From Limnochordales bacterium (GTDB lineage Bacteria > Bacillota > Limnochordia > Limnochordales > DUMU01), in assembly GCA_014896315.1 (NCBI GenBank), contig JADBKP010000010.1, positions 68,821 to 132,820 of the forward strand: 64,000 nucleotides of DNA, in the 5' to 3' direction. Of the stretch, positions 16,345 through 31,450 are shown piece after piece. The notes under the pieces were generated by a model, which saw only the letters and a program-made list of their open reading frames with translations, did no database searches and was not told the origin of the DNA. The first letter of the stretch is position 1. The number at the start of each line of letters is the position of its first letter. A program made the translations under genes and the position numbers.

Positions 16345-18399
16345 TCACATGCTAAGTTCGCGCCGAAGCTCAGCTCCCTTTCGTGCCGGTCGGAGCGGGG
16401 CGGGCGAGCGCGGGGAGGGCAGATACAGAAGGCGCATGCCGTTGAGGATGACGGCAAGCACACTTATCTCGTGTATCAGCATGCCCGAGGCGAGGTGTAC
16501 CCGCCCGAAGAGCACGCCGGCGACCAGGGAGAGCACGACGATGACGGCGAAGGTCAGGTTCTGGCGCACGTTTGTGACGATGGCGCGGGCAAGGCCAATG
16601 GCAAGGGCGATCCTCTCCAGGTTGTCTGTGATCAGGGCGACATCGGCCGCCTCCAGCGCTACGTCAGTGCCGGCGCCGATGGCGATGCTGACGTCGGCAG
16701 CGCTGAGAGCAGGGGCATCGTTGATGCCATCGCCCACCATGGCCACGGTGAAGCCCTGGGCGCTGAGCTCCCTTAGCTTCTTGACCTTGTCCTCGGGCAA
16801 AAGCCCGGCTTCGACACGGTCGATGCCCAGGGCGGCGGCGACGGGTGCGGCCGCGGCGGCGCTGTCCCCGGTCAGCATCACGGTCTGCCGCACACCGACC
16901 CGGCGCAGGAGCGGCACGAGATTTCTGGCGCTCTTCCGGATCCGGTCTGCCAGCGAAATCCATCCGTATATCCGGCCGTCGACGGCGACCAGTGCAACCG
17001 TGCGGCCGCGGGCCGCCTCCTCCTGAACGGAGTTCAGCACGGAAGCGTCGACCGTCAGTCCCATCTCTTCCATGAGACGGGTGTTGCCCACCAGCACCTG
17101 CCGGCCGTCTACAGCGGCGGCGATGCCGCGGCCCGGAAAGACCCGGACCTGCCGGGGCTCAGGGAGGGCTTCCGCCCAAAGTTCGGCGGCGGCCCGTTCC
17201 AGGATGGCGGCGGCGAGGGGGTGTTCTGAGCCTTTCTCGGCCGCGGCGGCCAGGCGCAGGAGTTCGGCCTCGGTGATGGCCACCCCGGCGGCGCCGGGTG
17301 CGGGTTCGTCCAGCACACGCACCCCGACCACCTCGGGCCGGCCCGCGGTGAGCGTCCCCGTCTTGTCGAAGGCGACGGCGTCGACCCTCGCCAGTTTCTC
17401 AAGACGCTGGCCGCCCTTGATGAGCACTCCCTGCCGGGCCGCCCGTCCGATGCCGGCCACCAGCGACACGGGCGCGGCCAGCACCAGCGCTCCCGGGCAG
17501 GCGACGACCAGCAGCGTCAGCGCCAGGTGCGTGTCGCGAGTCATAAAGAAGGTGACCGCAGCCAGGACCATGATGGCGGGGGTGTAATACCTCGCAAACC
17601 GTTCCACCGCCGTCTGAACTGGCGAGCGTGCCTCCTGTGCCTCGCCCACCAGCTGGATGATGCGCCCGAAGGTGGTCTCCTCGCCCACCCGGGTAGCCTC
17701 TACTTCCATCAGTCCGCGAGTAGCCACGCTTCCGGCCATCACAGTGTCGCCTGGTCCTTTGGGCACAGGAAGCGGTTCACCGGTGAGGGCTGCCTCGTTG
17801 ACTTCCGCCTCCCCCCGCAAGACGATCCCGTCTGCCGCCAGCTTGTCGCCGGACTTCACAACGAGGATGTCACCCGGCCGCACCTCCTCGGCACGGATCA
17901 CTGCCTCGCTTCCGTCGGGCCGGCGCACCCGGGCGGTCTGCGGCGACCAGTCAGCCAGGGCGCGGATGGCCGCACGAGTACGTTCGAGCGTTTTCCATTC
18001 GAGGTAGCCGCCCAGGTCGAAGAGGAACGTTACGGCAGCTGCTTCCCAGTACTCGCCGATCGCCACCGCCCCGGCCGCCGCCACGGTCACCAGCACCTCA
18101 ATGCCGGGGGAGCGCAGCCGCAGGCTGGCTATGGCCCGGCGAGCCAGGGCCTGGCCCGAGACCATTGCTGCCCCGACCATGCCGGCGGCGTAGATAAGCT
18201 CGGCAAGGGACGGCGTTGTCCCGGGGCCGGAATCGTGGCCGCTAAAGGCCGAACCCGGGCCGGCGCCCGCCCGGACCGCCCAGGCCAGGATGATCAGGGC
18301 CGCCGCCGCGCTGACGCGGCGCAGCGGCGGCTCGGACCTCACGAGGTTGATGGCGCGCCAGATGATCTGTCGCAGAGTCTCCGGGACTGCACACACCAT
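16345..18399 (-). CDS. heavy-metal-translocating P1B-type ATPase
   Basis: LTGE, CPGALV (TM6), DKTGTLT, SEHPLA, MLTGD, GDGINDAP, HE in the last TM; no N-terminal metal-binding domain. Confidence 0.95.
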   Translation of the reverse strand: MVCAVPETLRQIIWRAINLVRSEPPLRRVSAAAALIILAWAVRAGAGPGSAFSGHDSGPGTTPSLAELIYAAGMVGAAMVSGQALARRAIASLRLRSPGIEVLVTVAAAGAVAIGEYWEAAAVTFLFDLGGYLEWKTLERTRAAIRALADWSPQTARVRRPDGSEAVIRAEEVRPGDILVVKSGDKLAADGIVLRGEAEVNEAALTGEPLPVPKGPGDTVMAGSVATRGLMEVEATRVGEETTFGRIIQLVGEAQEARSPVQTAVERFARYYTPAIMVLAAVTFFMTRDTHLALTLLVVACPGALVLAAPVSLVAGIGRAARQGVLIKGGQRLEKLARVDAVAFDKTGTLTAGRPEVVGVRVLDEPAPGAAGVAITEAELLRLAAAAEKGSEHPLAAAILERAAAELWAEALPEPRQVRVFPGRGIAAAVDGRQVLVGNTRLMEEMGLTVDASVLNSVQEEAARGRTVALVAVDGRIYGWISLADRIRKSARNLVPLLRRVGVRQTVMLTGDSAAAAAPVAAALGIDRVEAGLLPEDKVKKLRELSAQGFTVAMVGDGINDAPALSAADVSIAIGAGTDVALEAADVALITDNLERIALAIGLARAIVTNVRQNLTFAVIVVLSLVAGVLFGRVHLASGMLIHEISVLAVILNGMRLLYLPSPRSPAPLRPARKGAELRRELSM

Positions 18400-18402
18400 G
18401 GT

Positions 18403-18633
18403 TTACGCCCCCTTCTCCCGCCGCAGCGACCGGGCCGGATACCCAAGGCGCCCGACCGCGTCGGCGATCGCCTGCGAGCTGGTCCTGGTCTCGTCGTACT
18501 CGACCGTCAGCCGGCCGACGGCAAAGGCCAGGCGGGCGGCAGTGACGCCCGGCATGCTGCCCACTGCCCGTTCAATCCGGGTCACGCAGCTTGGGCAGTG
18601 CAGGTTATCGAGTTGAAATACCTCACGAATCAT
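18403..18633 (-). CDS. HMA/CopZ-like metal chaperone
   Basis: LHCPSC motif, about 76 aa ferredoxin-like pattern ending in GY. Confidence 0.9.
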   Translation of the reverse strand: MIREVFQLDNLHCPSCVTRIERAVGSMPGVTAARLAFAVGRLTVEYDETRTSSQAIADAVGRLGYPARSLRREKGA

Positions 18634-18723
18634 CTGGAATACCCCCGTCCACATGGATGTCCGGATTGCGGCGTGTTCCGCCTCACTCCGGCTTCATGAT
18701 CAACTGGGGTCGGGCCGCGAGTT

Positions 18724-18739
18724 TATGACGGGGGTCATA
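18724..18739. promoter_or_regulatory. palindromic Crp/Fnr-type operator
   Basis: tATGAC-GGGG-GTCATa between the regulator stop and the HMA start. Confidence 0.6.
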
Positions 18740-18775
18740 GTTTAGGGAGACAAAGAGACGGTTGGCAGGTAGAGC

Positions 18776-19540
18776 TTATAGACCTTCGGCACGGTCAGCA
18801 AGCCTGTTCACATCAAGCAGGCGGACGCAGCGGCGTCCTTGCAGCCGGATCAGCCCGGCGTCTTCTAGCGAGTGAAGCTTGCGGCTGAGAGTCTCCTGGG
18901 ATGTTCCGAGGAGCTTGGCTATCTCCTCCTGGGTCAGGGGTAACTCGACTACCGTACCCTGCGGCACCGGCGCGGCAACATCACCACGGGCAGCCGCCAG
19001 TTTGAGAAGGAGCGCCGCCACCCGATTTTCCACCGGGTGAACTGCAAGTTGTTCAGCCAGCGTCTCGAGCTCCATGATGCGCAGTGCGAGGGCGCTCAGC
19101 ATCTTGAGACTCGCCTCGGGGCTGCGGTGCAGGAGTTCCCGAACGTGGCTGCGGGCGAGCAGGCAGACCCGGGCGTCCTGGAGCGCAACGCCGGTAGCTG
19201 CCAGCGCCTGAGGGAGGAAGAGGGAGAGCTCGCCGTAGAAGTCGCCCGGACCGAGAAGGCGTACCACCTGTTCCCGACCGGAAGCAGAGATACGGGTCAC
19301 CTTCACCAGGCCACGGGCCACAACGAAGAGCAGGCCCGGGTCCTGCCCGGCCTGGAAGACTACCTCGCCCTTGCTGAACTGCCGTGTTTGAGCTCCGGTG
19401 GCCAGAAACTGCATCTCTTCTTCGGAGAGGCTGGAGAAAATTGGTACCAGGCGAAAGCACCCGGCTTCTGGGTGACAATGCCCCTTTTTTCCTGATTCCG
19501 CATGGGTAGGCTGGTTATCTGCGTGACGATCCTGCTGCAC
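18776..19540 (-). CDS. Crp/Fnr family transcriptional regulator (Flp-like)
   Basis: cNMP-like domain with GELSLF; HTH LTQEEIAKLLGTSQETLSRKL; N-terminal H/C cluster GHCH...C. Confidence 0.93.
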   Translation of the reverse strand: MQQDRHADNQPTHAESGKKGHCHPEAGCFRLVPIFSSLSEEEMQFLATGAQTRQFSKGEVVFQAGQDPGLLFVVARGLVKVTRISASGREQVVRLLGPGDFYGELSLFLPQALAATGVALQDARVCLLARSHVRELLHRSPEASLKMLSALALRIMELETLAEQLAVHPVENRVAALLLKLAAARGDVAAPVPQGTVVELPLTQEEIAKLLGTSQETLSRKLHSLEDAGLIRLQGRRCVRLLDVNRLADRAEGL

Positions 19541-19662
19541 CGTAAATCGCCCCCAAGTGATCCTATCATAGCGTGTCGGGCAACTAAGATAGCCGTGTTA
19601 ACAGTTGGGGGCGGTAGCGCGCCAAGATCTTGGGTTATGATGGGTTATGACGATGGGTTATT

Positions 19663-20166
19663 ATGAGAGTTGACCGAGTCGATTTTGGGGCAGGTGCGTT
19701 ACCAGTGAACGTCGAATCGCGCAGAAGCCCCCCGGCCACGGATCGACCCTCGGAGAGCAAGCCGGCAGCTCCTCCGGCGTCAGACGTCGCTGCCGGCGAA
19801 TGGACACCGTACATCATGGCTTGGAAAGAGAGGGCAGTCCGAGCCCAGGCCAGGCTAGAGCGGTGGCGGGAGAGGGCGCTACTCGATGCCCGCCGCCTGG
19901 CCAACGTGCTGGGCCGTGAGTTCGGTGTAAAGAGGGTTTACCTTTTCGGCTCACTTCTGTCCGGCAGGGTCAATCCTCACTCGGATATTGACCTCGCCGT
20001 GGAGGGATTGTCGCCAGCGGTGTACTATCGGGCCTGGGCCCGCCTCGAACGCGAGACTGACATCCCCGTTGACCTGGTCGACCTGGATCGCGCCGCTCCC
20101 GCGCTGGCCCAGCGGGTGCAAAGAGAGGGGGTTCTGCTGTATGAGCTCAATGAAAAGCAGGGATGA
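19663..20166 (+). CDS. minimal nucleotidyltransferase (MNT), start uncertain
   Basis: VYLFGSLL...SDIDLAVEGL, VDLVDL. Confidence 0.88.
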   Translation: MRVDRVDFGAGALPVNVESRRSPPATDRPSESKPAAPPASDVAAGEWTPYIMAWKERAVRAQARLERWRERALLDARRLANVLGREFGVKRVYLFGSLLSGRVNPHSDIDLAVEGLSPAVYYRAWARLERETDIPVDLVDLDRAAPALAQRVQREGVLLYELNEKQG

Positions 20167-20677
20167 CGATCCCCTACGGCTCCGGTTACTCTCACTACTG
20201 GCAGCTATTGCCGAAGACTGGGAGGCGGCCAAGAAGAACGCAGCTCAGGCCCGTCAGGTGCTCAAAGAATCGGGACCCGCGGAATTACGGGCGGCAGCCG
20301 CTGCTACGTTTCTCGTCCGGTTTTACACCGGGGTTGAACAGGTTTTCCAGCGCATTGCCCAGGAATTTGACGGCGGCTTGCCGGTCGGGGCGGCGTGGCA
20401 TCGGGATCTGCTAATGGCGATGGCCAGGGAGATCCCGACCTCTCGGCCGGCGCTTCTGACAGCGCAGCTGCGCGACATGCTTGATGAGTACCGCAAGTTT
20501 CGCCACCGGGTGATGCACGCGTACGGGGCAGATCTCGACTGGGAGGCCGTGCGACCGTTAGTAGAGCGTGTCGGGGATGTGAGTACGCAGGTTCAGGCAG
20601 CGCTCGACCAGTTTGCGGCTTTTGTCAGGGCGATAGGCGAGCCGGACATTGGAAATGACTTCACGAAAAAGGGTTAG
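20141..20677 (+). CDS. HepT/DUF86-like HEPN ribonuclease toxin
   Basis: FYTGVEQVFQRIA, WHRDLL, RKFRHRVMHAY (R-X4-H). Confidence 0.85.
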   Translation: MSSMKSRDDDPLRLRLLSLLAAIAEDWEAAKKNAAQARQVLKESGPAELRAAAAATFLVRFYTGVEQVFQRIAQEFDGGLPVGAAWHRDLLMAMAREIPTSRPALLTAQLRDMLDEYRKFRHRVMHAYGADLDWEAVRPLVERVGDVSTQVQAALDQFAAFVRAIGEPDIGNDFTKKG

Positions 20678-20688
20678 GGGGGCTCCTG

Positions 20689-22518
20689 GTGGGACTTACT
20701 TCCAAAGGCGCAGAAGAGCTCTGGCATCTTCTGGTGGAAATCAAGGATTTGACAGGCGGGTCGCTTTCTCGCAAGGAGATCGAGACGCTGGCGGCACGGA
20801 TTCTGGACGTCGAATGGGAACGCCAGGTTCGGCCGATAGAGATACTTTACTACTCACACGAGATCACGAAAGAAGAAAGAGATTTCCTGATTCGGGGAGT
20901 CATCGAGAAGTATGTTGGTCGTGGTCTTAGACCTCCTGCTGCTGTGAATGACTGCCCCAGTCATGTTCTAAGTCTTGAACGGCAGAGGGAGTTAGTCCAA
21001 CTTGTGCAGCAGGTAGAGCAGCGGCCTTCAGAACGCGCCCAGCGGCTGGTTTACGACTATGTCCGCGCGGCTCTGCAAGGTACCAGGATAGGAGCCGAAG
21101 CAGCGGTACAGGTAGCCCGCCAGGCTTTGAACATTTCTTCCGAGTGTGCTGATGCCTACCTCATGCTGGCGGCTGCCGCAGGATCAGCGAAAGAGGCTGT
21201 TTCCTGGAGTGAAAAAGCATTGCAGGCTGCTGAGAAGCTGTTGGGCCAGGAATTGATCGAGAAGTCTGCCGGTCTTTTCCTGAGTCTGGTCCTCACCCGG
21301 CCGTATTTGCGGGCTCGGAATCAGCTGGCCCGGGCACTTTGGAATGCTGGTCGCAAGAGTGAGGCTATCCAACATGCCGAAGCGATTCTAGCGCTCAATC
21401 CGAGCGACATTCTTGGGGTGCGTTTCTACTTGCTGAACTGGTACCTGGAGATGCAAATGACAGAGAAAGCCGGAGAGCTGTTCGATAACTACCACCTCAA
21501 CGAGAAGGGACCTGATAGTGACCGGACGAGCGTCGTCTATGATCGGGCTCTTTTGCTATTCCAAAAGGAGGGCGACTCGCCGCCAGCTCGCCAGGCTTTG
21601 GACTATGCAGTTTTTCGAAATCCCTATGTGATTGGGGCTATCACCCGGGCACTTCTTGCCAGCGCTATTGCTGGGCCCGATTCGGATGAATTCATGCTAC
21701 CCGTGCGAGAGCTAGAGCGGTTGGCTGAGCATGACGATCGTGTGGGCAAGTTGGCTTTCGAGGCAGCAGAGTATTTCCGAGAGCGGCTAGAGGCCTGGAT
21801 GCAAACGCCGGGAGCAATGGAGTGGATTGGCGAATCGGGAATGAAGCTCCTGCTGAGTGCTGTAGGCGGTTCAGGACGAACGGCAGGCAAGCGAGGCAAG
21901 CAGGTGCCTGTTGTCGCTCCAGAGCTAATTTACCAGTTGAAGATCACCTTGAGCGGGAGCAAACCACCTATCTGGCGGCGGGTGTTGGTTCCGGCCAGTG
22001 CGACTTTTTACGATTTGAACGAGATCATCCTTGAATCCATGGGATGGCTGGGGGGCCATCTGTGGGAGTTCGAAGTGGGTGACCATCTATATGGACCTCG
22101 CGGTCCGGACCTGGATTGGGGAGATGAACCGCCGCAGGATGCCCGCAAGACCCGGCTGTACGAGGTCCTTGGCGGCCCGGGGACGACTTTTCGTCACTTC
22201 TATGACTTCGGGGATGGATGGGTACACAACGTCCGCGTCGAGAAGCTGTTGGAGCCGGAACCCGGAGTCACCTATCCCCGCTGCGTTGCCGGCAAACGGG
22301 CCTGTCCGCCGGAAGATTGCGGCGGCATCTGGCGTTATTACGAGCTGCTAAAGATTGCTGCCGATCCGTCCCACCCGGATCATAAAGAAACTGTTGCCTG
22401 GCTGGGGCCAGAGCGGCTTGACCCAGAGAAGTTCGACGTGGTGGAGGCCGACGCTGCCCTGGAGTACGTGCGGCGTCGGCTGAGCCGCCGGCAGCTGCGA
22501 GCAAAGAAACGAGGATGA
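20689..22518 (+). CDS. TPR-repeat protein with C-terminal pRiA4b ORF-3-like domain
   Basis: TPR-like helices (DAYLMLA, RPYLRAR, LNPSDILGVRF); YQLKITL..SKPPIWRR, YDFGDGW, ACPPEDCGG. Confidence 0.85.
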   Translation: MGLTSKGAEELWHLLVEIKDLTGGSLSRKEIETLAARILDVEWERQVRPIEILYYSHEITKEERDFLIRGVIEKYVGRGLRPPAAVNDCPSHVLSLERQRELVQLVQQVEQRPSERAQRLVYDYVRAALQGTRIGAEAAVQVARQALNISSECADAYLMLAAAAGSAKEAVSWSEKALQAAEKLLGQELIEKSAGLFLSLVLTRPYLRARNQLARALWNAGRKSEAIQHAEAILALNPSDILGVRFYLLNWYLEMQMTEKAGELFDNYHLNEKGPDSDRTSVVYDRALLLFQKEGDSPPARQALDYAVFRNPYVIGAITRALLASAIAGPDSDEFMLPVRELERLAEHDDRVGKLAFEAAEYFRERLEAWMQTPGAMEWIGESGMKLLLSAVGGSGRTAGKRGKQVPVVAPELIYQLKITLSGSKPPIWRRVLVPASATFYDLNEIILESMGWLGGHLWEFEVGDHLYGPRGPDLDWGDEPPQDARKTRLYEVLGGPGTTFRHFYDFGDGWVHNVRVEKLLEPEPGVTYPRCVAGKRACPPEDCGGIWRYYELLKIAADPSHPDHKETVAWLGPERLDPEKFDVVEADAALEYVRRRLSRRQLRAKKRG

Positions 22519-22736
22519 AGCTTCAAGGGGAGGCTTTGGCGATTCGCCAGCCGGAGCCTCCTCCTAAACTCCCCGGTTCATACCTGCCTCCCGCACCCCC
22601 CTTTTGACGACGAAATCCCAGAACCTCAGAGATGGTGGCCGCATACAAAGGTTCAAAGGTTCAGGCATCCTTCGTAATTCGCGCTCTTCGTAACCAGGGC
22701 GACCTACCGTTTGTAACAGGAGAGAGGGTGAATCCC

Positions 22737-22906
22737 ATGGCAGAGGAGCAGATCAACAGGACCGAAGGCAACGGCGTTGGCCAGGCCGGGGGCGCTGGCA
22801 GCGACGACCTTTTCCGGGTGGGGCAGCAAGTTCTGGTCACTATGGAAGCGGACCAGCTCAATCTGCTGGGACAGGTCTTCCGCCCCATCTTCTGCGGCAC
22901 CATCAC
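22737..22906 (+). pseudogene. mnxE: mnxE-like accessory subunit, 5' half, truncated by IS256
   Basis: GQQVLVTMEADQLNLLGQVFRPIFCGTI closely matches the Bacillus MnxE segment as I recall it (GKQILIITESSQLNILGQTFRPIFCGKV); upstream of an mnxG-like gene. Confidence 0.75.
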
Positions 22907-24185
22907 GGTCAAGTCCTGGATCCGGTGTAAAAGCGACCTCTGGTAGAATCTGGGCGATCATGCTGCCTCCTGCTGATCTGTTGCGGTGCTCTTTGGGGCT
23001 GTCTCCGATTGGGCCTTCCATCGCCAATACTCCGACATGTCGAAGTACCGGTGCCCCGTCGTCCAGTTCTCGTCGATTTCCATGAGGACTGCCCCCATCA
23101 GCCGGAGCGCCGACTCCTCGTTGGGGAAGATGCGGATCACTCGTTCCCGCCGGCGGATCTCTTCGTTGAGCCGCTCAACCCCATTGGTCGTCCGCAAGCG
23201 TCGACGATATTGCTCAGGAAGAGCCATGATTGCCATAGCATCTTCGAATCCGGATTCGAGGATTTCTACCGCCCGCGGAGCCCGCTCAGCATAATCCTGC
23301 ACCAGCTCCTCCTTCAGCCGACGCGCGGTCTCCAAGTCGGGGGCATCGAATACCAGGCGCAGGCGTTGGTGAAGCTCCCGTTCCAGTGATCTGGGGCAGG
23401 CATCGAGAATGTTGCGGATAAAGTGAGTCTGACACCGCTGCCACGTTGCCCCCTGAAAGCACGTCTCGATTGCTTTGACAAGGCCTTTATGCTCATCAGA
23501 TACCACCAGGTCAACCCCTGTCACTGCAAAGCCGAATCCTGCCGCCCTTGCGCACCCTGATCACTATGGCATCTACCAGCAAGAACGGATATCGCCCCCC
23601 GCTCAGGTCACGGTCGTTCCACTCCTGGACAATCGCATCGAGCCCCTTGCACAGCTCAGACACGGTCGACCGGGAAAACTCCGTCCCGCACAACTCCTCC
23701 ACAATCGCCCGAACCTTCCGGGTCGAAACCCCGTTGACCACCATCTCCACCATGGCCAGCAGCAGCGCCTGCTCACTGCGCTGGTAGCGTTCGAAAAGGT
23801 CGGTCGAGAAACTACCCCTGCGCACCCTGGGAACTTGCAGGTTCAGCTCGCCCACCCGGGTCTTGAGCAGCCTGGGTCGATGTCCGTTCCGATACCCCTG
23901 GCGCTCTTCGGTACGCTCGTAGCGCTCGGCCTTTAGTTGCTCAGTAACCTGCGCTTCCAGGATCTGATTAATCACCTGCTCCACAAGCCGCGCCAAGCCG
24001 TCATCCCGAACGAACAACTGCTGCAAGATCTCGCCGTCTATGGTAACCTGGTACTGGGCCATCCTTGTCCCTCCTGGTGATGTGGAGTAAGTCACCCATT
24101 CATCTACCAGAGGCGGGGTGGCCCTTCCTGCTTCGAGGGGCCCCCGGGACCCTCTCCACTTTTACACCAGCATACCGGACACTAC
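22907..24185 (-). mobile_element. IS256-family element with defective transposase (22958-24062)
   Basis: YRNGHRPR, LQVPRVR, GVSTRKV, WQRCQTHF, RTTNGVERLNEEIRRR; frame break and internal loss near 23520-23545; imperfect IRs sharing GGTGTAAAAG / CTTTTACACC. Confidence 0.9.
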
Positions 24186-24363
24186 TTTCCCGTTCTTAGT
24201 AATCGGAGTAATAGAGCGGGTGGTCGAGGAGTTTATCTTCGTACAGGTGGAGACCTGCCATGTGATGGAGCTTGAGGGAACGACTATGCGTATATACGTG
24301 GACGACATCGAAGTCTTCTACATCGAAGATGAAAAGCATGCTATCCCCTCTCTCAAACCTTAG
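24186..24363 (+). pseudogene. mnxF: mnxF-like accessory subunit, 3' half only
   Basis: FPFLVIGVIERV..FIFVQVETCH...IYVDDIEVFYIE...IPSL matches the MnxF C-terminal half as I recall it (YPYMFVGII...VETTH...IEVFYIE...IPKL); no own start codon or RBS. Confidence 0.72.
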
Positions 24364-24397
24364 CCAACCCCGATCTGTGATAAAGGAGGGGATAAAC

Positions 24398-27300
24398 TTG
24401 CTTCGGGAGTATCACGTCAATGCTATCTCCCTGCGCATTGTATATAACAAGTTCGGCGATCACGATCCCAACGGCATACGTCCTGGCCGAAGACGAGGAC
24501 AGAGTCCGGGCTGAGGTGGCCGCCAATCCCTTCACCCCGGTTGAACTGGTGCAGCCTCTGGCGCTACGAGCCAACGCCGGGGATGATATCCGGATCGTCT
24601 TCACAAACAGACTGCCCTTCGCCACCGGCATACACGTGCAGGGGGTGGAGTATAACGTACAGACTTCCGACGGTTCCTGGGTGGGCTGCAATGAGAACTC
24701 CCTGGCCCCGCCCTGCCCGCCCGGCGGAACACACATCTACGAATGGAAGGTGGTTCGGGAAGGGATCCACCACTTCAGCGACCTGGCCAACCCCCTCTCG
24801 AGTGCGCGGGGCAGCAACGTCCACGGCCTCTTTGGGGCGCTCATCGTCGAGCCGCGGGGCTCATGGTGGACCGATCCTGTGACGGGAGAGCCCAGCAAGA
24901 GTGGTGTCTTTGCCGACGTTCACAATCCTTTGTTGCCCTCTTTCCGGGAGTTCGTCTTCTTCTTCCATGATGAACCGGAGGTCAAAGACCTGACGGGCAG
25001 TGTGCCGATCGATCCTATGACCTTGCAGGCATCGCCGACCCCGGCAATAAACTACCGTTCCGAACCCCACCGCAACCGCGCCCGGCTGATCATGACCGGG
25101 GTGGTCTGTCCCGATTGTGACGGGGAAGAAGTTCACCATGACTCCTGGGTTTTCGGCGATCCCGATACGCCCGTCTTCCGCACCTACGTCGGCGACCCCA
25201 TCAAGCTCCGCCTGATCCACGGCGGGGTGCAGGAGACCCACGAATTCCACTGGCATGTTCACCAGTGGCGCTTCGAAGCAAATGATCCCGACTCAGACAT
25301 CGTTGACGTGCAGGCCGTCGGACCGCAGAGCGCCTTTAGCATTTCGCCGCTGTACGGGGCGGGGAGCCTGCAGGGCGCATTTGGCGACATTGTCATGCAT
25401 TGCCACCTCTACCCGCACTTCACCGACGGCATGTGGTGCATCAACCGGGCGTTCAACACTCTGCAGGACGGTTCACAATGTTACCCGAACGGGTTGCCGA
25501 TTGCGCCGCTGAAGCCCCTGCCCGACCGTGAACCGCCGCCGCTACCCACTCCGGAAAAGCCGGGCTTTCCCAACTTCATTCCCGGCATCTTCGGCTGCAA
25601 GGCGCCGCGTCCGCCCCTGGGCATCGAAGGCGGCCGCGAACCAACAGCGATTGAGCGGAACCAATTTGCCCCCAACGCCCGTCCGGGAGCGGTCTTCGTC
25701 AATCCCTGCCGCCCTGGGATTAACCCGGAGAGAGAGTTCGACGTGGTGGCCATTCAGATGCCGGTGGTCTACAACCGGCAGGGTTGGCACGACCCCGAAG
25801 GCCGCCTGTTCGTGCTGGCCGAGGACGAGGCCGAGGTACGAGCGGGGGCAAAACCGCCTGAGCCGCTGGTGCTGCGGGCTAACGCGGGGGACTGCGTGCG
25901 AGTGCGGTTCACCAACAAGTTCCGCGAGGTTATCGGCGGCAACGCGTTCCAACTGGCGACCCGCACCTACGAATCCTCCATGCACATCCACTTCGTCAAG
26001 TTCGACCCGCTGGTGTCCGACGGGGCTAACGTCGGCTGGAACTACGATTTTAGCGTTCTGCCCGGAGAGACGATCTGGTATCAATGGTTTGCCGACGTGG
26101 AACTGCGCAATGCCTTCTTCCACGACCATCTCTTTGCCAACACGCATCAGCAGCATGGCGTTTTCGGTTCAATCGTGGTCGAGCCGCGGGGGTCGCAGTA
26201 TCTGGATTCTTGTACGGGGAAGGAGATTCGTGCTGGTACGCAGGCGACTATCGTCAACCCCCTGATCCCCGACTTTCGTGAACTGGCGCTCTTCGTACAC
26301 GATTTCGCCCTGCTCTTCGATGCCGACGGCTGCCCGCTCAATAAGCCGCCCTTCCCGGGTTCACATGACGACCCGGGCGTCATGGGGGTGAACTACCGGA
26401 ATGAGCCGCTGCAATTCCGGATCGCCCGTGACTGCCGCCCGCATGCCTTACCCGGTGCTTCGGTCAGCGGTGCGGCCGCCACCGGGTCGGAACGGCCGGC
26501 TGCCAGCGATCCCGCGTACGTGTTCAGTTCGTTCGTCCACGGCGATCCGGTTACGCCCATGCTGCTAACGTATAACGGCGATCCGGTACGGATTCGCCTT
26601 ATGGACGGGGCGCATGAGGAGTCGCACAGCTTCAATCTCCACCGCCAGCGCTGGAACCGCATGCGCAACAATCTCAACTCGGAGTTGATCCAGCAGCAGC
26701 ATATCAATATTGCCGAACACTTCACTCTCGAGTTTGCCATGGAAGGTGAGGGGGATTTCGACTGCCTCTATCACTTCGGCAGTATCGATGACATCTGGCT
26801 TGGCAACTGGGGGATTTTCCGTTCGTTCGGGCAGCGGGTGCCGCACCTGATCCCGCTTCCAGACAGGCCCGCGCCCCCGCCCAGGACAAAGCCCTTGCCC
26901 GAGCGGACGGGCAAGCGGCCGCCCCGGGCCCGGGGCGGGGTGAGGCCCCGGGCGAAGCGGCAGCCCGGCCGGCCAGGGCCTGAGTCCGTACCCGTCCGCC
27001 ATTTCGACGTCTTCGCTCTACCGGCCCGCATTGTGTACAACGAAGCGGGCGATCACGACCCCTACGGCCTCGTCTTTGCCCTGGCCAAAGACGTGCCGGC
27101 CATCCTGAACGGGGAGAAGAACCCCGAGCCACTCATCCTGCGGGCCAATGTCGGCGACATAGTGGACGTAACGCTGTACAACGGCCTGCTAGCTGCGGGT
27201 GACGACAGCATATTCCACGGGGCCCGCGGCCCGCACAGACCCGACGGGACTGAGGCGCATGGCTACCCCGGCGTGCCGGTAGATGCTCCCTTCCCGCCCT

Positions 27301-28286
27301 CGCTGCGCATCTCCCTGCACCCGCAGCTTCTGGTGTATGACGTCCGCTCTTCCGACGGGGCGACGGTGGGGTTCAACCCGGATCAGACGGTGGCGCCGGG
27401 GAAATCCATCACCTACCGCTGGTACGTGGATCGCGAGGTCGGGGCGGTCAACCTCTGGGACATGGCCGACCTGCGCAACCACCGCCACCACGGGGCATTT
27501 GGTGCCTTTATCGCTGAACCACGCGGGTCGATCTACCTTGACCCCTTCACCGGTGAAGAGGTGGACGTAGGCGGGAACCAGGTTGTCATTCTCAACCCGT
27601 TCCTGCCGGCTTTCCGGGAGTTCGTGCTGGTGATGCACGACGGGGTGCGGTTGGTGGATGCGGCCGGAAACCTGATCATCGATCCCGAACCAGTTGTCCT
27701 GCCAGGAGGCGATGGTGCGGAACAGGAGGAGTTGGCGGATTTCGAGGATCAGGGGTCGCGCGGCTTCAACTACCGTTCTGAGCGGCTGCACCACCGCCTG
27801 GCCGAATTGCCGGATCTGGCCGCGGTCTTTACCTCCCGGCCGCCGCACCGGGATCCGGCGACGCCCTTCTTCCTCGCCCATGTGGGTGACCCGGTGGTGG
27901 TGAGAATGGTGGTGGCCGCCGACAAGCCGCGAGCCCACACGTTCACAATCCACGGGCATACGTGGCGGCGAGATGCGAACGACGGCAACTCCGCCTACGT
28001 CTCCCTGGCCGGCGAAATGAGCGTGGGTTACCACAAGAGCCTCTTCCTTGCCCACGGTGCGGGGGGACTGCTCGGCGTCCCCGGCGACTATATGTATCGG
28101 TCCGGCAACCTGCGCTGGGATGTGAAGCTCGGCATGTGGGGGATCATCCGAGTGCTGGAAAAGGGCGCGCAGTCCGGGATGCACGGGGATAAGTGTGGGA
28201 ACGGGCGAAAGTTGTTGGCCCTTTCGGCGCTCGCTGATCCGCTCCGGCCGATGGTCCGGAAAAAGGGGGTGAGGCAGGATGACTGA
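24398..28286 (+). CDS. mnxG: MnxG-like large multicopper oxidase (putative Mn oxidase), frameshifted near 24476
   Basis: AGGAGG RBS + TTG, LREYHVNAISLRIVYNKFGDHDPNG, then frame change to YVLAEDE; CPDCDGEEVHHDSWVFGDP, THEFHWHVHQW, HCHLYPH, MHIHF, FHDH, HSFNLH, HTFTIHGH. Confidence 0.88.
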
Positions 28287-29115
28287 CCATGCTGGGTTCA
28301 GATGTCCCGAGCGGCTGCCGGCTTCGGCGGGGGAGGAGGATCGCGTCTTGGGGCGCTTTCCCTGCCCGCCGCGGGTGCCTACACCCCGGTTTTCCTCACC
28401 GAACAGCCCGCTTCCGCCCGAGGAACTCGAGCAGCTCAAAGCTTGTCTGGAAGAAGTCAACGACCTGCTCCGGACCCTCGGTAATCCGCCGGATCCGAAG
28501 AACAAAGAAACCTTGCGGCTGCACCTGCGAAGGCTGCGCGGCCAGCGGGTGCTGGTGGAGATGGCCTGCGGCGGTGGTGGCACATATGCTCATGGCGGAG
28601 GCCAAGATGAGGGCGAAGGGCAGGAAAACGGCGGGCAAGAGAGCGAGAAGACGGGTCAGGGCAGGTCGTATGCTGGGATACTGCGGGATGCCGGCAAGGA
28701 TTACCTGGAGCTTGATTGGGGGAAGCGAGAGAAGCGAGGCGATCGGGAAGAGCAACGGCGGGTATTGCTGCCGTACGGACGTGTATGTATGGTAACAGTT
28801 CAAGATCCGGATGAATCGTTTGAGCCGCCGCACCATCCCGAACTGATTGATATCGACCCCGACCTGCGCCGGGATCTGGTGCTCAGCTTTGGCAGGGTGG
28901 TGGCGAGCAATCCAGAGCTGATCAGTATCTTCTTTGGGTTGCCATTGCACCTGCGCCTGCGCCAAGAGGCGGGAGTCAGAATCACCGTGCGGCTGGAGGG
29001 GGATACGGTCACCGGGCAGCTGAGCGAGGTAGACGAGGAGAGCATCAAGGTACGGACTGCGCCCGGGGCTGAGCACCGGATCATTCTGGCGGAGGTGTGT
29101 GCAATCCTCATCTAG
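28279..29115 (+). CDS. hypothetical protein overlapping the mnxG stop (possible Mnx accessory/spore-coat protein)
   Basis: 8-bp overlap with mnxG; repeated small beta-rich units (RVLVEMACGG...AGILRDAGKDYLEL; VRLEGDTVTGQLSEVDEESIKV). Confidence 0.6.
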   Translation: MTDHAGFRCPERLPASAGEEDRVLGRFPCPPRVPTPRFSSPNSPLPPEELEQLKACLEEVNDLLRTLGNPPDPKNKETLRLHLRRLRGQRVLVEMACGGGGTYAHGGGQDEGEGQENGGQESEKTGQGRSYAGILRDAGKDYLELDWGKREKRGDREEQRRVLLPYGRVCMVTVQDPDESFEPPHHPELIDIDPDLRRDLVLSFGRVVASNPELISIFFGLPLHLRLRQEAGVRITVRLEGDTVTGQLSEVDEESIKVRTAPGAEHRIILAEVCAILI

Positions 29116-29160
29116 CCGTTCCTTCGTGGCAGATGCAATACGCAAGGTGCGATACGCAAA

Positions 29161-29187
29161 GGAAGAGCCGCCGCAGCGGCTCTTCTT
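29161..29187. terminator. hairpin terminator between convergent genes
   Basis: GAAGAGCCG-ccgcag-CGGCTCTTC. Confidence 0.75.
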
Positions 29188-29269
29188 ATTTACAATGTGT
29201 CCTGGTTCTGTCCGGTTCATTGGCGCTGCTTGACGCGTTCTCTAGCCCCGCTTCTGGCCCGGACAAGCG

Positions 29270-29533
29270 TTAGCCAGAGAGGCGTTTGGCCTGGCGGATG
29301 CGATCGCTGACGACGGTGATGACGGCATGATCGTTACGGCGGAGGGTCACAAAGTCGTGGCCGACCCCGGTGAGGACGCCAGCGACAGGGCGCGGCTTGC
29401 CGCCACAGTCAAGCTTCAACCGTACCCGCTGCCGCCACAGCCGCAAGAAGCGGTAATTAGGTGAATCGGTCAGTCCGCACAGGTTCAGGTTCACCGGACA
29501 GGGGAACTCTTTGGCTGGCTCCACTCTTATCAT
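29270..29533 (-). CDS. small hypothetical protein resembling the beta-rich unit of 28279-29115
   Basis: QRVRLKLDCGG...VAGVLTGVGHDFVTL; AAAGGA RBS. Confidence 0.55.
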   Translation of the reverse strand: MIRVEPAKEFPCPVNLNLCGLTDSPNYRFLRLWRQRVRLKLDCGGKPRPVAGVLTGVGHDFVTLRRNDHAVITVVSDRIRQAKRLSG

Positions 29534-29630
29534 CCCCCATTTCCTTTTACTCAGCAGTTTACGGGAGAAGAAGGCGGGGGGAACTCGGAGGCGAAGATAG
29601 GAAAGATCAGGATGTACACACGGCCGGCCA

Positions 29631-30074
29631 CTACGGTATGAGACGAACAGAGACTCCCGGCACTGCCGTCCATGTTGAGTCTGCCGTCAGTGCTGGCAGG
29701 CCTAGGGTTTTCGCCAGCGCAAGACAGGCGCGGTCTGCAAGGGAGAGCCCCATGATTGTCGTTGAAGTACGAAGACGGGCTGCTTCCTGGGCCTGAGCAA
29801 GGGTAAAGTCCATGATCTCGATGGCATCAAGGATCCCATAAGCGGTCAGGTCCCGTATGGCACGGTCAACTCCCACACCGTGATCTTCGAGTTTGGCCAG
29901 AACCTCGGAGAGGTTTACCGCGGACATCGCGACGCCACTGGCCAGTGCTTCGGCTACGGTCTCCGCTCCCGGTTCGTCGAAGAGGTATGCCAGAAGGGCG
30001 GATGCGTCGAGGACGGCTTTGCCGGTCTTACCAGTGCTGCTGGCTTGCCTGGTAGTGCGACTCCTCCCGTCCAT
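29631..30074 (-). CDS. vapC: VapC/PIN-domain toxin
   Basis: VLDASALLA, NLSEV, LSLADRACLALA, LTAD. Confidence 0.9.
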   Translation of the reverse strand: MDGRSRTTRQASSTGKTGKAVLDASALLAYLFDEPGAETVAEALASGVAMSAVNLSEVLAKLEDHGVGVDRAIRDLTAYGILDAIEIMDFTLAQAQEAARLRTSTTIMGLSLADRACLALAKTLGLPALTADSTWTAVPGVSVRLIP

Positions 30075-30080
30075 ACTGCC

Positions 30081-30344
30081 TCACTCGCTCCGGGCGTCCT
30101 CTCGCTGCGCCTCGTGTCTGCGATCCCGGATTAACTCGGAGACAACGCTTTCCCCGCCCTTACGGAGATTGCCGTATATCCCGCGGCCTTTCTGAACAGC
30201 ATTCGCCAGCCGGATCACCCTGAACTCTCCCGCGTTCACCGGCTCGACAATTACGGTATCGCCCTCGTGCAAGTTCAGCTCTTTTCTGATCTGTACCGGT
30301 ATGCAGAGCCGGCCACGGCGGTCTATGGTTGCGCGTTCACCCAT
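30081..30344 (-). CDS. vapB: AbrB/MazE/SpoVT-type antitoxin (VapB)
   Basis: IDRRGRLCIPVQIRKELNLHEGD directly upstream of the PIN gene. Confidence 0.88.
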   Translation of the reverse strand: MGERATIDRRGRLCIPVQIRKELNLHEGDTVIVEPVNAGEFRVIRLANAVQKGRGIYGNLRKGGESVVSELIRDRRHEAQREDARSE

Positions 30345-30429
30345 GTGCCCGCCTCCTCGCATGGGATAGTGGTCCTCTGTGGGCAACCGTTATCATATCC
30401 CATTTATCTACCGCCAGCTACGGAGTTAG

Positions 30430-31450
30430 GCCCTCGGCTGGGTAGCCAACGAGAGGCGCTGAGTAGCAAGTTTGCCAGCCGCGCTGCAGTGGCCCTTGCC
30501 CGCCTGTACTTGCGGGCCCGGGACGAGGTGGCGTGGGCGCTTTGGGACGTCCGCCACCGGCATGAGGCGATCCAACGTGCTGAGGCGGTTCTGGAGCTGA
30601 ATCCGCACGCCGCCCAGGGGACACGGTTCTATCTATCGAACTGGTATCCGCGGCTGCAAATGACGGAGAAAGCCGGCAAGCTCCTCAACCGCTATCTTCC
30701 CGGCGGGGATGGACCTGATAGCCGACGAACGAGCGTGGCTTATGGTCGGGCCCTCTGGTTACACCAGCAGGAAGGAGCTTCGCCGGCAGCCCGCCAGGCT
30801 CTGGAGCATCCTCCTGTCGTCTTACCATCGTAACCAAGGCGCTCTTTGTGAGTGCCGTAGCCGAAGTGGATTATGGATGCAGTCTTGGAACCGATGCGAA
30901 GGTTGCAGGATCGGGCGGTGAGCGATGACGCCGGGAGTGAGTTGGCCGCGGCAGCGGTGGAATAATTCGACGAAGGGCTACCTGCTTGGATGCACACCCC
31001 GGGGGCGCTTGAGTGGATGGCAGACCTGGGTGTGGAGCTGTTGTTTAGCGCCAGAGGAGCGAAAGGGGTGAAGGGGGCGAAAGATGGCGAAGGGGGCGAA
31101 GGTGGCGAAACGGACCGGCCGAGGTGGAATCGTTGTTGCCCTAGACTCAAGCAGCATGGGCAGCATAGGGAGCATAAGCAGCATAAGCAAAGGCGAAGGT
31201 GAAAACCGTTATGAACCTGCGGTCAGGAGGCGGGTGCTGGTCCCGGCGAACGCGACTTTTGCTGATTTGAACGACATCATCCTGGAGGCCATGGGATGGC
31301 TGGGGTGCCATCTCTGGGAATTTGAGGTGGGTGACGAGCTATACGGGCCTCGCGGTCCGGACTTGGATTGGGCAGGTGAACCGCCGCGGGATGCCCGCAA
31401 GACCCGGCCGTACGAGGCGCTTGGTGGTGGGGCAACGTTCCGTCATCTCT
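30430..31450 (+). pseudogene. degenerate second copy of the TPR/pRiA4b ORF-3 gene
   Basis: Nucleotide blocks shared with 21290-22200 (e.g. ggcctcgcggtccggacttggattggg, gatgcccgcaagacccgg); stops and frameshifts; truncated by the IS21 remnant. Confidence 0.8.

Follow-up and report, generated by a model that had tools for sequence, protein, structure and literature searches.

An IS256-family insertion sequence and a 5-bp frameshift very probably inactivate an mnxE-mnxF-mnxG operon in a Limnochordales bacterium

What has become of the two small genes that should precede mnxG in a Limnochordales bacterium, and does a working manganese oxidase operon remain at this locus? The question is raised by a contig of this bacterium, whose genome comprises 20 contigs (2.59 Mb), and from which a window of 64,000 nt, the whole stretch of DNA analyzed here, supplies all coordinates given below. 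In this window, an insertion sequence (IS) separates two short gene fragments directly upstream of a gene for an MnxG-type multicopper oxidase. An earlier note on this DNA took the fragments for the N-terminal half of MnxE and the C-terminal half of MnxF and proposed that insertion of an IS256 element, followed by an IS-adjacent deletion, had removed both small subunits at once. We conclude that a Bacillus spore-type mnxE-mnxF-mnxG operon has very probably been inactivated in recent times by two lesions, namely, the replacement of 277 bp by the IS and a 5-bp frameshift in mnxG. As such, the case is one of ordinary IS-mediated pseudogenization plus a frameshift in a known operon, and its surprise is low.

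Both reading frames described in the earlier note, the left one running into the IS and the right one lacking a start, are present. The left open reading frame (ORF) starts with the ATG at 22737 behind the ribosome-binding site GGAGAGAGGG, reads ...QLNLLGQVFRPIFCGTIT, and enters the IS at 22906/22907; its native translation, MAEEQINRTEGNGVGQAGGAGSDDLFRVGQQVLVTMEADQLNLLGQVFRPIFCGTIT, is followed by 12 unrelated IS-encoded codons and a stop (22944-22946). The right frame opens directly at the far edge of the IS (FPFLVIGVIERV...), with neither a start codon nor a ribosome-binding site, and is translated as FPFLVIGVIERVVEEFIFVQVETCHVMELEGTTMRIYVDDIEVFYIEDEKHAIPSLKP up to the stop at 24361-24363. 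In phmmer searches of all PDB sequences, the left fragment matched only MnxE of entry 9bxa (9bxa_B residues 29-57, E = 2.1e-7), and the right fragment only MnxF of the same entry (9bxa_E residues 44-92, E = 1.3e-7). This entry is the Mnx complex (MnxE3F3G) of Bacillus sp. PL-12 / SG-1 (Romano et al. 2017, PMC5622069; Novikova et al. 2024, as cited in PMC13689576).

The assignments were extended with profiles of our own. Scanning one genome per species yielded 72 loci with close MnxG, 57 of which, mostly from Bacillales, have mnxE-like and mnxF-like ORFs directly upstream of mnxG, and the profiles were built from these 57. The order is always mnxE-mnxF-mnxG, with mnxE and mnxF 10-130 bp apart (in one locus there is a 28-bp overlap), and the places matched by the two window fragments are separated by a median of 299 bp. 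Against these profiles, the left fragment scored E = 5.9e-17 for MnxE and 0.17 for MnxF, whereas the right fragment scored 2.5e-24 for MnxF and 0.062 for MnxE. Thus, neither of the outcomes that the earlier note had set against itself, namely, failure of the fragments to align or alignment of both to one protein, was found, and E values as low as those obtained with the PDB (2e-7 and 1e-7) and with the profiles (6e-17 and 2.5e-24) exclude a chance match. Each fragment resembles its own protein only, and neither amounts to a complete one: a complete MnxE has approximately 95-110 aa, and the 57 native residues in the window, versus 107 in relatives, mark a gene fragment rather than a member protein; a complete MnxF has approximately 93-110 aa and its own start, versus 58 codons here and 93 in the relatives L092 and L093.

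The relatives define exactly what is missing. Three contigs from close relatives, the Logan contigs L092 and L093 and the NCBI contig L094, carry intact mnxE-mnxF-mnxG at 80-91% DNA identity and thereby provide the intact allele that the earlier note had suggested looking for. Contig L094 (contig C282 of genome G002) belongs to a species representative of the same genus as the window genome, and a second contig of that genome bears the 3' half of mnxG with the two genes after it. The intact 107-aa MnxE (P0122) on L092 and L093 is 86% identical over its first 57 residues to the window stub, and MnxF of all three contigs is 97-98% identical in protein to the window tail; together, the relatives' intact proteins span residues 29-109 of MnxE and 13-92 of MnxF in 9bxa. 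In the DNA alignment, the left flank of the window stays in register up to ...GGCACCATCAC and the right flank resumes at TTCCCGTTCTT..., with the IS standing exactly in place of 277 bp of the relatives, that is, 154 bp of mnxE, an 18-bp spacer, and 105 bp of mnxF. The loss comprises codons 58-107 and the stop of mnxE, the spacer, and codons 1-35 of mnxF; in an intact allele, the 3' half of mnxE, CGAAGTGACGAGG..., would be expected directly after 22906. Two scans of JGI metagenome contigs with degenerate flank patterns returned no match.

The IS itself was delimited by an alignment of four copies and a scan for conserved ends. It begins with GGTCAAGTCC... and ends with ...CCGGACACTACT, one base further to the right than the flank "TTTCCCGT" in the earlier note implies; its terminal inverted repeats pair at 20 of 28 positions when one is set against the reverse complement of the other (Table 1). 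The transposase is of the IS256 type: its N-terminal and C-terminal ORFs score 153 and 166 bits with NF033543 (cut-off 150), and PF00872 matches the two halves with E values of 2e-53 and 3.5e-55. Besides the window copy, complete copies stand at C5:106823-108224, C8:883-2162, and C16:181435-182663 of the same genome, and end fragments on contigs C15 and C18. The copy on C5, 1402 bp long with an unbroken 408-aa transposase, is autonomous. Relative to it and to the C16 copy, the window IS and the C8 copy share a deletion of 122 bp inside the transposase gene (joining 23523 to 23524 in the window), which costs the catalytic region approximately 40 residues and throws the transposase out of frame, whereas in C16 a different internal stretch, of approximately 173 bp, is missing. 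Calling the element an IS256 remnant is therefore apt for its transposase gene but not for its ends, both of which are present; it is a non-autonomous copy and not a stump.

In its general features, the element conforms to the IS256 family, with a single Mutator/IS256-type DDE transposase, a full length of about 1.4 kb within the approximately 1.2-1.5 kb of the family (1402 bp when complete, 1280 bp here), imperfect terminal inverted repeats of approximately 28 nt, several copies per genome, autonomous as well as internally deleted, and loss of flanking DNA with no duplication left behind. IS256-family insertions usually leave an 8-9-bp target-site duplication, and in this respect the present element differs, with none seen at any of its four complete copies. 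At the window copy, as the earlier note had also reported, there is none: the 14-nt flanks TGCGGCACCATCAC and TTCCCGTTCTTAGT have no more than 2 consecutive nt in common. At the other three, the longest shared flank word is 3-5 nt, and no duplication emerged when left and right flanks of different copies were set against each other. The absence is expected after a deletion or recombination that changes the flanks and has no bearing on the transposase family. Two segments of the element vary (left end of type A or B, middle of type 1 or 2), and each possible combination occurs among the four copies, which implies recombination, gene conversion between copies, or chimeric assembly of the repeats. 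In related genomes, no complete copy was found, only contig-end fragments and relatives of the element at 68-76% identity.

The second lesion, which the earlier note does not mention, lies in mnxG. The conserved start, a TTG at 24398 behind AAAGGAGGGG, opens a frame that encodes LLREYHVNAISLRIVYNKFGDHDPNG, after which, in a three-frame translation, the frame changes and the protein continues as YVLAEDED... in another one; all relatives have ...GDHDP(N/D)G(M/L)(M/L)YVL... near the same place. Compared with L092, L093, and L094, 5 bp are missing between 24476 and 24477 (relatives GGTATGCTGTAC, window GGCA-----TAC), shifting the frame after codon 26, so that mnxG can no longer be read through from its conserved start. 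In the 1288-aa ORF that gene calling places at the ATG at 24420, the N-terminal 19 residues are spurious. Beyond them, the gene encodes a multicopper oxidase of six domains whose homology to 9bxa_A extends over the full length (E = 0, 1485 bits; ORF residues 19-1247 against chain residues 28-1205) with the copper ligands in place. In an alignment of 61 sequences, it keeps all 23 invariant His/Cys columns and 309 of the 318 near-invariant ones; five of the nine departures fall within the 19 out-of-frame N-terminal residues and a sixth at residue 23. Apart from the frameshift, mnxG is, by this comparison, otherwise intact.

Table 1. Positions of the features of the mnx locus in the window
Feature	Position	Strand	Remarks
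mnxE' (5' part of mnxE)	22737-22906	+	codons 1-56 and two bases of codon 57; MnxE match
IS256-family insertion sequence, 1280 bp	22907-24186	-	ends from alignment with the C8, C5, and C16 copies
Left terminal inverted repeat of the IS, GGTCAAGTCCTGGATCCGGTGTAAAAG...	22907-22934		conserved in the C16, C5, C8, and C18 copies
Right terminal inverted repeat of the IS, ...CTTTTACACCAGCATACCGGACACTACT	24159-24186		identical in the C5, C8, C16, and C15 copies
Transposase ORF, N-terminal part	23511-24095	-	PF00872 profile positions 16-179
Transposase ORF, C-terminal part, other frame	22958-23524	-	PF00872 profile positions 224-378
'mnxF (3' part of mnxF)	24187-24363	+	last 58 codons and stop; MnxF match
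mnxG multicopper oxidase gene, frameshifted	24398-28286	+	9bxa_A match; comparison with relatives
orf278, intact, function unassigned	28279-29115	+	neighborhood gene, outside the lesion
orf87	29270-29533	-	recurs in six mnx loci

Both lesions appear to be young. Pairwise Nei-Gojobori estimates against L092 gave ratios of nonsynonymous to synonymous substitutions (dN/dS) of 0.11 for mnxG (498 codons, dS 0.32), 0.03 for the 3' part of mnxF (58 codons), and 0.16 for the 5' part of mnxE (56 codons). Because purifying selection dominated the time since the split from L092, both lesions are recent relative to that split.

IS256-family insertion sequences cause deletions, either adjacent to the element or by recombination between copies, and two routes to the present arrangement, in which the non-autonomous element occupies the place of the 277 bp across mnxE, spacer, and mnxF, can be envisaged. 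By the first, a single insertion into mnxE or mnxF would have been followed by a deletion from one end of the IS, through intramolecular transposition or end-mediated illegitimate joining; by the second, two insertions in the same orientation would have been followed by homologous recombination between the copies. At about even odds, the two fit equally, and each would leave one IS without a target-site duplication. The mosaic copies and the lack of duplications at any copy suggest frequent exchange between copies, which lends color to the second route, although that route requires two hits within 277 bp. Of the earlier proposal, a single contiguous loss is borne out by the alignment, but the route by insertion and IS-adjacent deletion is only one of the two equal fits. 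A deletion that came first, with insertion at its junction, is unlikely, as it would have left a duplication.

What remains of the small subunits is a 57-residue MnxE stub with 12 IS-encoded residues and an MnxF tail devoid of a start codon, and the 5-bp deletion puts mnxG out of frame. The MnxE3F3 hexamer capping MnxG, to which the earlier note had referred, is documented: the active Mnx enzyme of Bacillus sp. PL-12 consists of MnxG capped by an alternating MnxE3F3 ring (PMC5622069, PMC13689576). Given the parts left in the two fragments, we infer that they could not form this ring. Loss of Mn(II) oxidase activity would be the consequence, as activity in Bacillus sp. PL-12 takes at least mnxE, mnxF, and mnxG in combination (PMC5622069), and by this analogy the operon is almost certainly dead.

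How far do the sequencing data bear out this structure? Logan contigs of run SRR24392716 reproduce window positions 17423-22936 and 24157-31281; both junctions are covered without mismatch, and the second contig carries the frameshifted mnxG, likewise without mismatch. The contigs pass each junction with no branch there and end exactly 30 nt inside the IS, the point at which a graph with k = 31 must branch owing to the repeat. Since the junctions are thus reproduced, an assembler-specific error is excluded, whereas a collapse of two IS copies into one is not countered by this observation.

The most serious of the alternatives is that the locus is polymorphic, with the IS and deletion allele, the 5-bp deletion, or both carried by part of the population and cells with an intact operon coexisting. 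Logan contig L091 of the same run is identical to the window save for 11 substitutions at 17428-17503, in the P-type ATPase gene at the contig end, and these substitutions, several of which are spaced 3 nt apart, suggest that a second, closely related strain was present in the sample. We nevertheless consider a mixed population unlikely, as the Logan contigs cross both junctions and the frameshift site with neither branch nor break; such contigs drop rare variants, however, and an allele carried by a minority of cells could have escaped them.

Less probable by some way is a collapse in assembly, by which a pair of like-oriented IS copies, one interrupting mnxE and the other mnxF on either side of the 277 bp, was merged into a single copy. 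The IS is repeated in the genome, its copies agree at 99-100% over the right-hand 663 bp, contigs are broken at other copies (C15 and C18), and a piece of approximately 300 bp, smaller than the smallest kept contig (1668 bp), could have been discarded. However, the missing 3' sequence of mnxE and 5' sequence of mnxF could not be traced elsewhere in the 2.59-Mb assembly by tblastn with the 57 MnxE and 57 MnxF proteins (best off-locus E value 0.03); and clusters of the intact MnxE and MnxF proteins at 90% identity contain no further member. Moreover, for a collapse the same IS would have to have struck twice, independently, within 277 bp, and mnxE and mnxF would both be broken all the same.

It is highly improbable, in turn, that the locus has been remodeled rather than left to decay, with MnxG used without the MnxE3F3 ring, perhaps transcribed from the IS and translated from the ATG at 24420. 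From this ATG, a 1288-aa ORF with all copper ligands is open, but it exchanges the conserved N-terminal LLREYHVNAISLRIVYNKFGDHDPNG for 19 unrelated residues; mnxE, mnxF, and an in-frame mnxG start are all retained on L094 of the same genus and on the two Logan contigs; no promoter-like site was found in or near the IS; and active Bacillus MnxG is expressed only together with MnxE and MnxF (PMC5622069). The stretch covered for such sites, 22400-24500, showed no terminator-like one either. Finally, the idea that a single small gene gave rise to both fragments, or that they are something other than MnxE and MnxF, was tested and rejected, retaining next to no probability, since despite the faint likeness of the two profiles around FRPIFCG / YPFLVIG, each fragment matches only its own PDB protein and its own profile, and the intact relatives have two separate genes at exactly these places.

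Recent inactivation by the IS replacement and the frameshift is, accordingly, the reading we retain, with some points weighing against it. The Logan contigs probably share their data with the assembly and so check the assembler rather than the data. One IS instead of two, the lack of an intact allele, and the 5-bp deletion itself all appear at the level of assemblies, that is, the genome assembly and the Logan contigs. The missing target-site duplication does not discriminate and is weak evidence by itself, because none of the four complete copies has one. The loss of function, lastly, is drawn from the biochemistry of Bacillus.

Several further observations concern the fragments and their surroundings. 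The MnxE and MnxF profiles align weakly with each other (hhalign probability 58%, E = 1e-4), FRPIFCG of MnxE standing opposite YPFLVIG of MnxF, which suggests that the two subunits are distantly related paralogues. The deletion begins and ends in or beside this shared motif (22880-22906 and 24187-24210). A latent MnxE-MnxF hybrid was considered and dropped, as the flanks joined without the IS are out of frame: the left one stops after the second base of a codon, and the right one opens with a whole codon.

Upstream of the operon, the window carries genes for a copper P-type ATPase, an HMA-domain protein, a Crp-type regulator, and a nucleotidyltransferase, all of which are found upstream on L094 as well; genes follow in the same order on the two contigs, whose DNA identity is 72-89%, with 84% across the upstream genes. 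A 2.3-kb segment of the window (20257-22579), containing most of a HepT-like gene and a gene for a 609-aa TPR + PRiA4_ORF3 protein, is missing from L094, where 92 bp lie between the matching flanks, which may reflect either an insertion in the window or a deletion in L094. The latter contig (GCA_050260295.1, JBLNBY010000282.1) bears the NCBI label "MAG: Bacteroidota bacterium," yet genome placement assigns it to the genus of the window genome, and the label looks wrong.

Downstream, orf278 overlaps the mnxG stop by 8 nt. It adjoins mnxG in about 50 of the 72 loci, mostly from Bacillales and including Bacillus sp. SG-1 (tblastn), has no match in Pfam, NCBIfam, or the PDB, and has the look of a conserved companion to the mnx genes that still lacks a name. 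That orf278 or orf87 might replace MnxE or MnxF was considered and dropped, the profile matches being insignificant (best domain E = 0.05).

Comparison with the Mnx system of Bacillus sp. PL-12 / SG-1 reveals the same gene order, an MnxG aligned to 9bxa_A with all invariant His/Cys kept, and, in the relatives' intact genes, nearly the whole of both small subunits. Unlike in that system, the last 50 codons of mnxE and the first 35 of mnxF are gone from the window, and mnxG is frameshifted; no mnxA-D were seen upstream in the window, and the host is a bacterium with 61% G+C. Among the window genome and 40 relatives of the same class, matches related to mnxG occur in the window genome and in G002 only. 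The best homologues of MnxG outside share 66-69% protein identity with it, the named ones being from Bacillales such as Geomicrobium, Tumebacillus, Priestia, and Paenibacillus, and in G+C content mnxG (0.60-0.66) is on a par with its genome (0.61). From the G002 copy, the Bacillales homologues, and the host-like G+C, the operon is probably a long-settled accessory trait of the genus that was once acquired horizontally.

The locus also bears on annotation. MnxE and MnxF are represented by no model in Pfam or NCBIfam, and neither database matched the fragments or the intact proteins; for this reason, the fragments go unnamed, in agreement with the earlier note, which was mistaken, however, in expecting standard annotation to miss them altogether, as gene callers do call ORFs over both (69 aa for mnxE' and 47 aa for 'mnxF). 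Proper annotation would give three pseudogenes (mnxE', 'mnxF, and the frameshifted mnxG) and a defective IS. Read instead as "hypothetical proteins" and an intact 1288-aa copper oxidase, the locus would lead to the genome being wrongly counted as a potential manganese oxidizer, and as long as models for MnxE and MnxF are lacking, such lesions will escape notice in general.

The biological value of the finding is modest, consisting of a Bacillus-type mnxEFG in a genus far from Bacillus, where it is being lost, and of orf278, which travels with mnxG in dozens of Bacillales. In the window genome, the module has a host-like base composition and was under strong purifying selection until recently. 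We suggest only tentatively that mnxEFG and orf278 form a module that settled in one high-G+C Limnochordales-type genus outside the Bacilli and was later inactivated twice in quick succession in the lineage sampled here. If this is true, manganese oxidation would be a conditionally dispensable trait in the habitat of the host, and orf278 would become a candidate for an overlooked fourth partner of the Mnx system.

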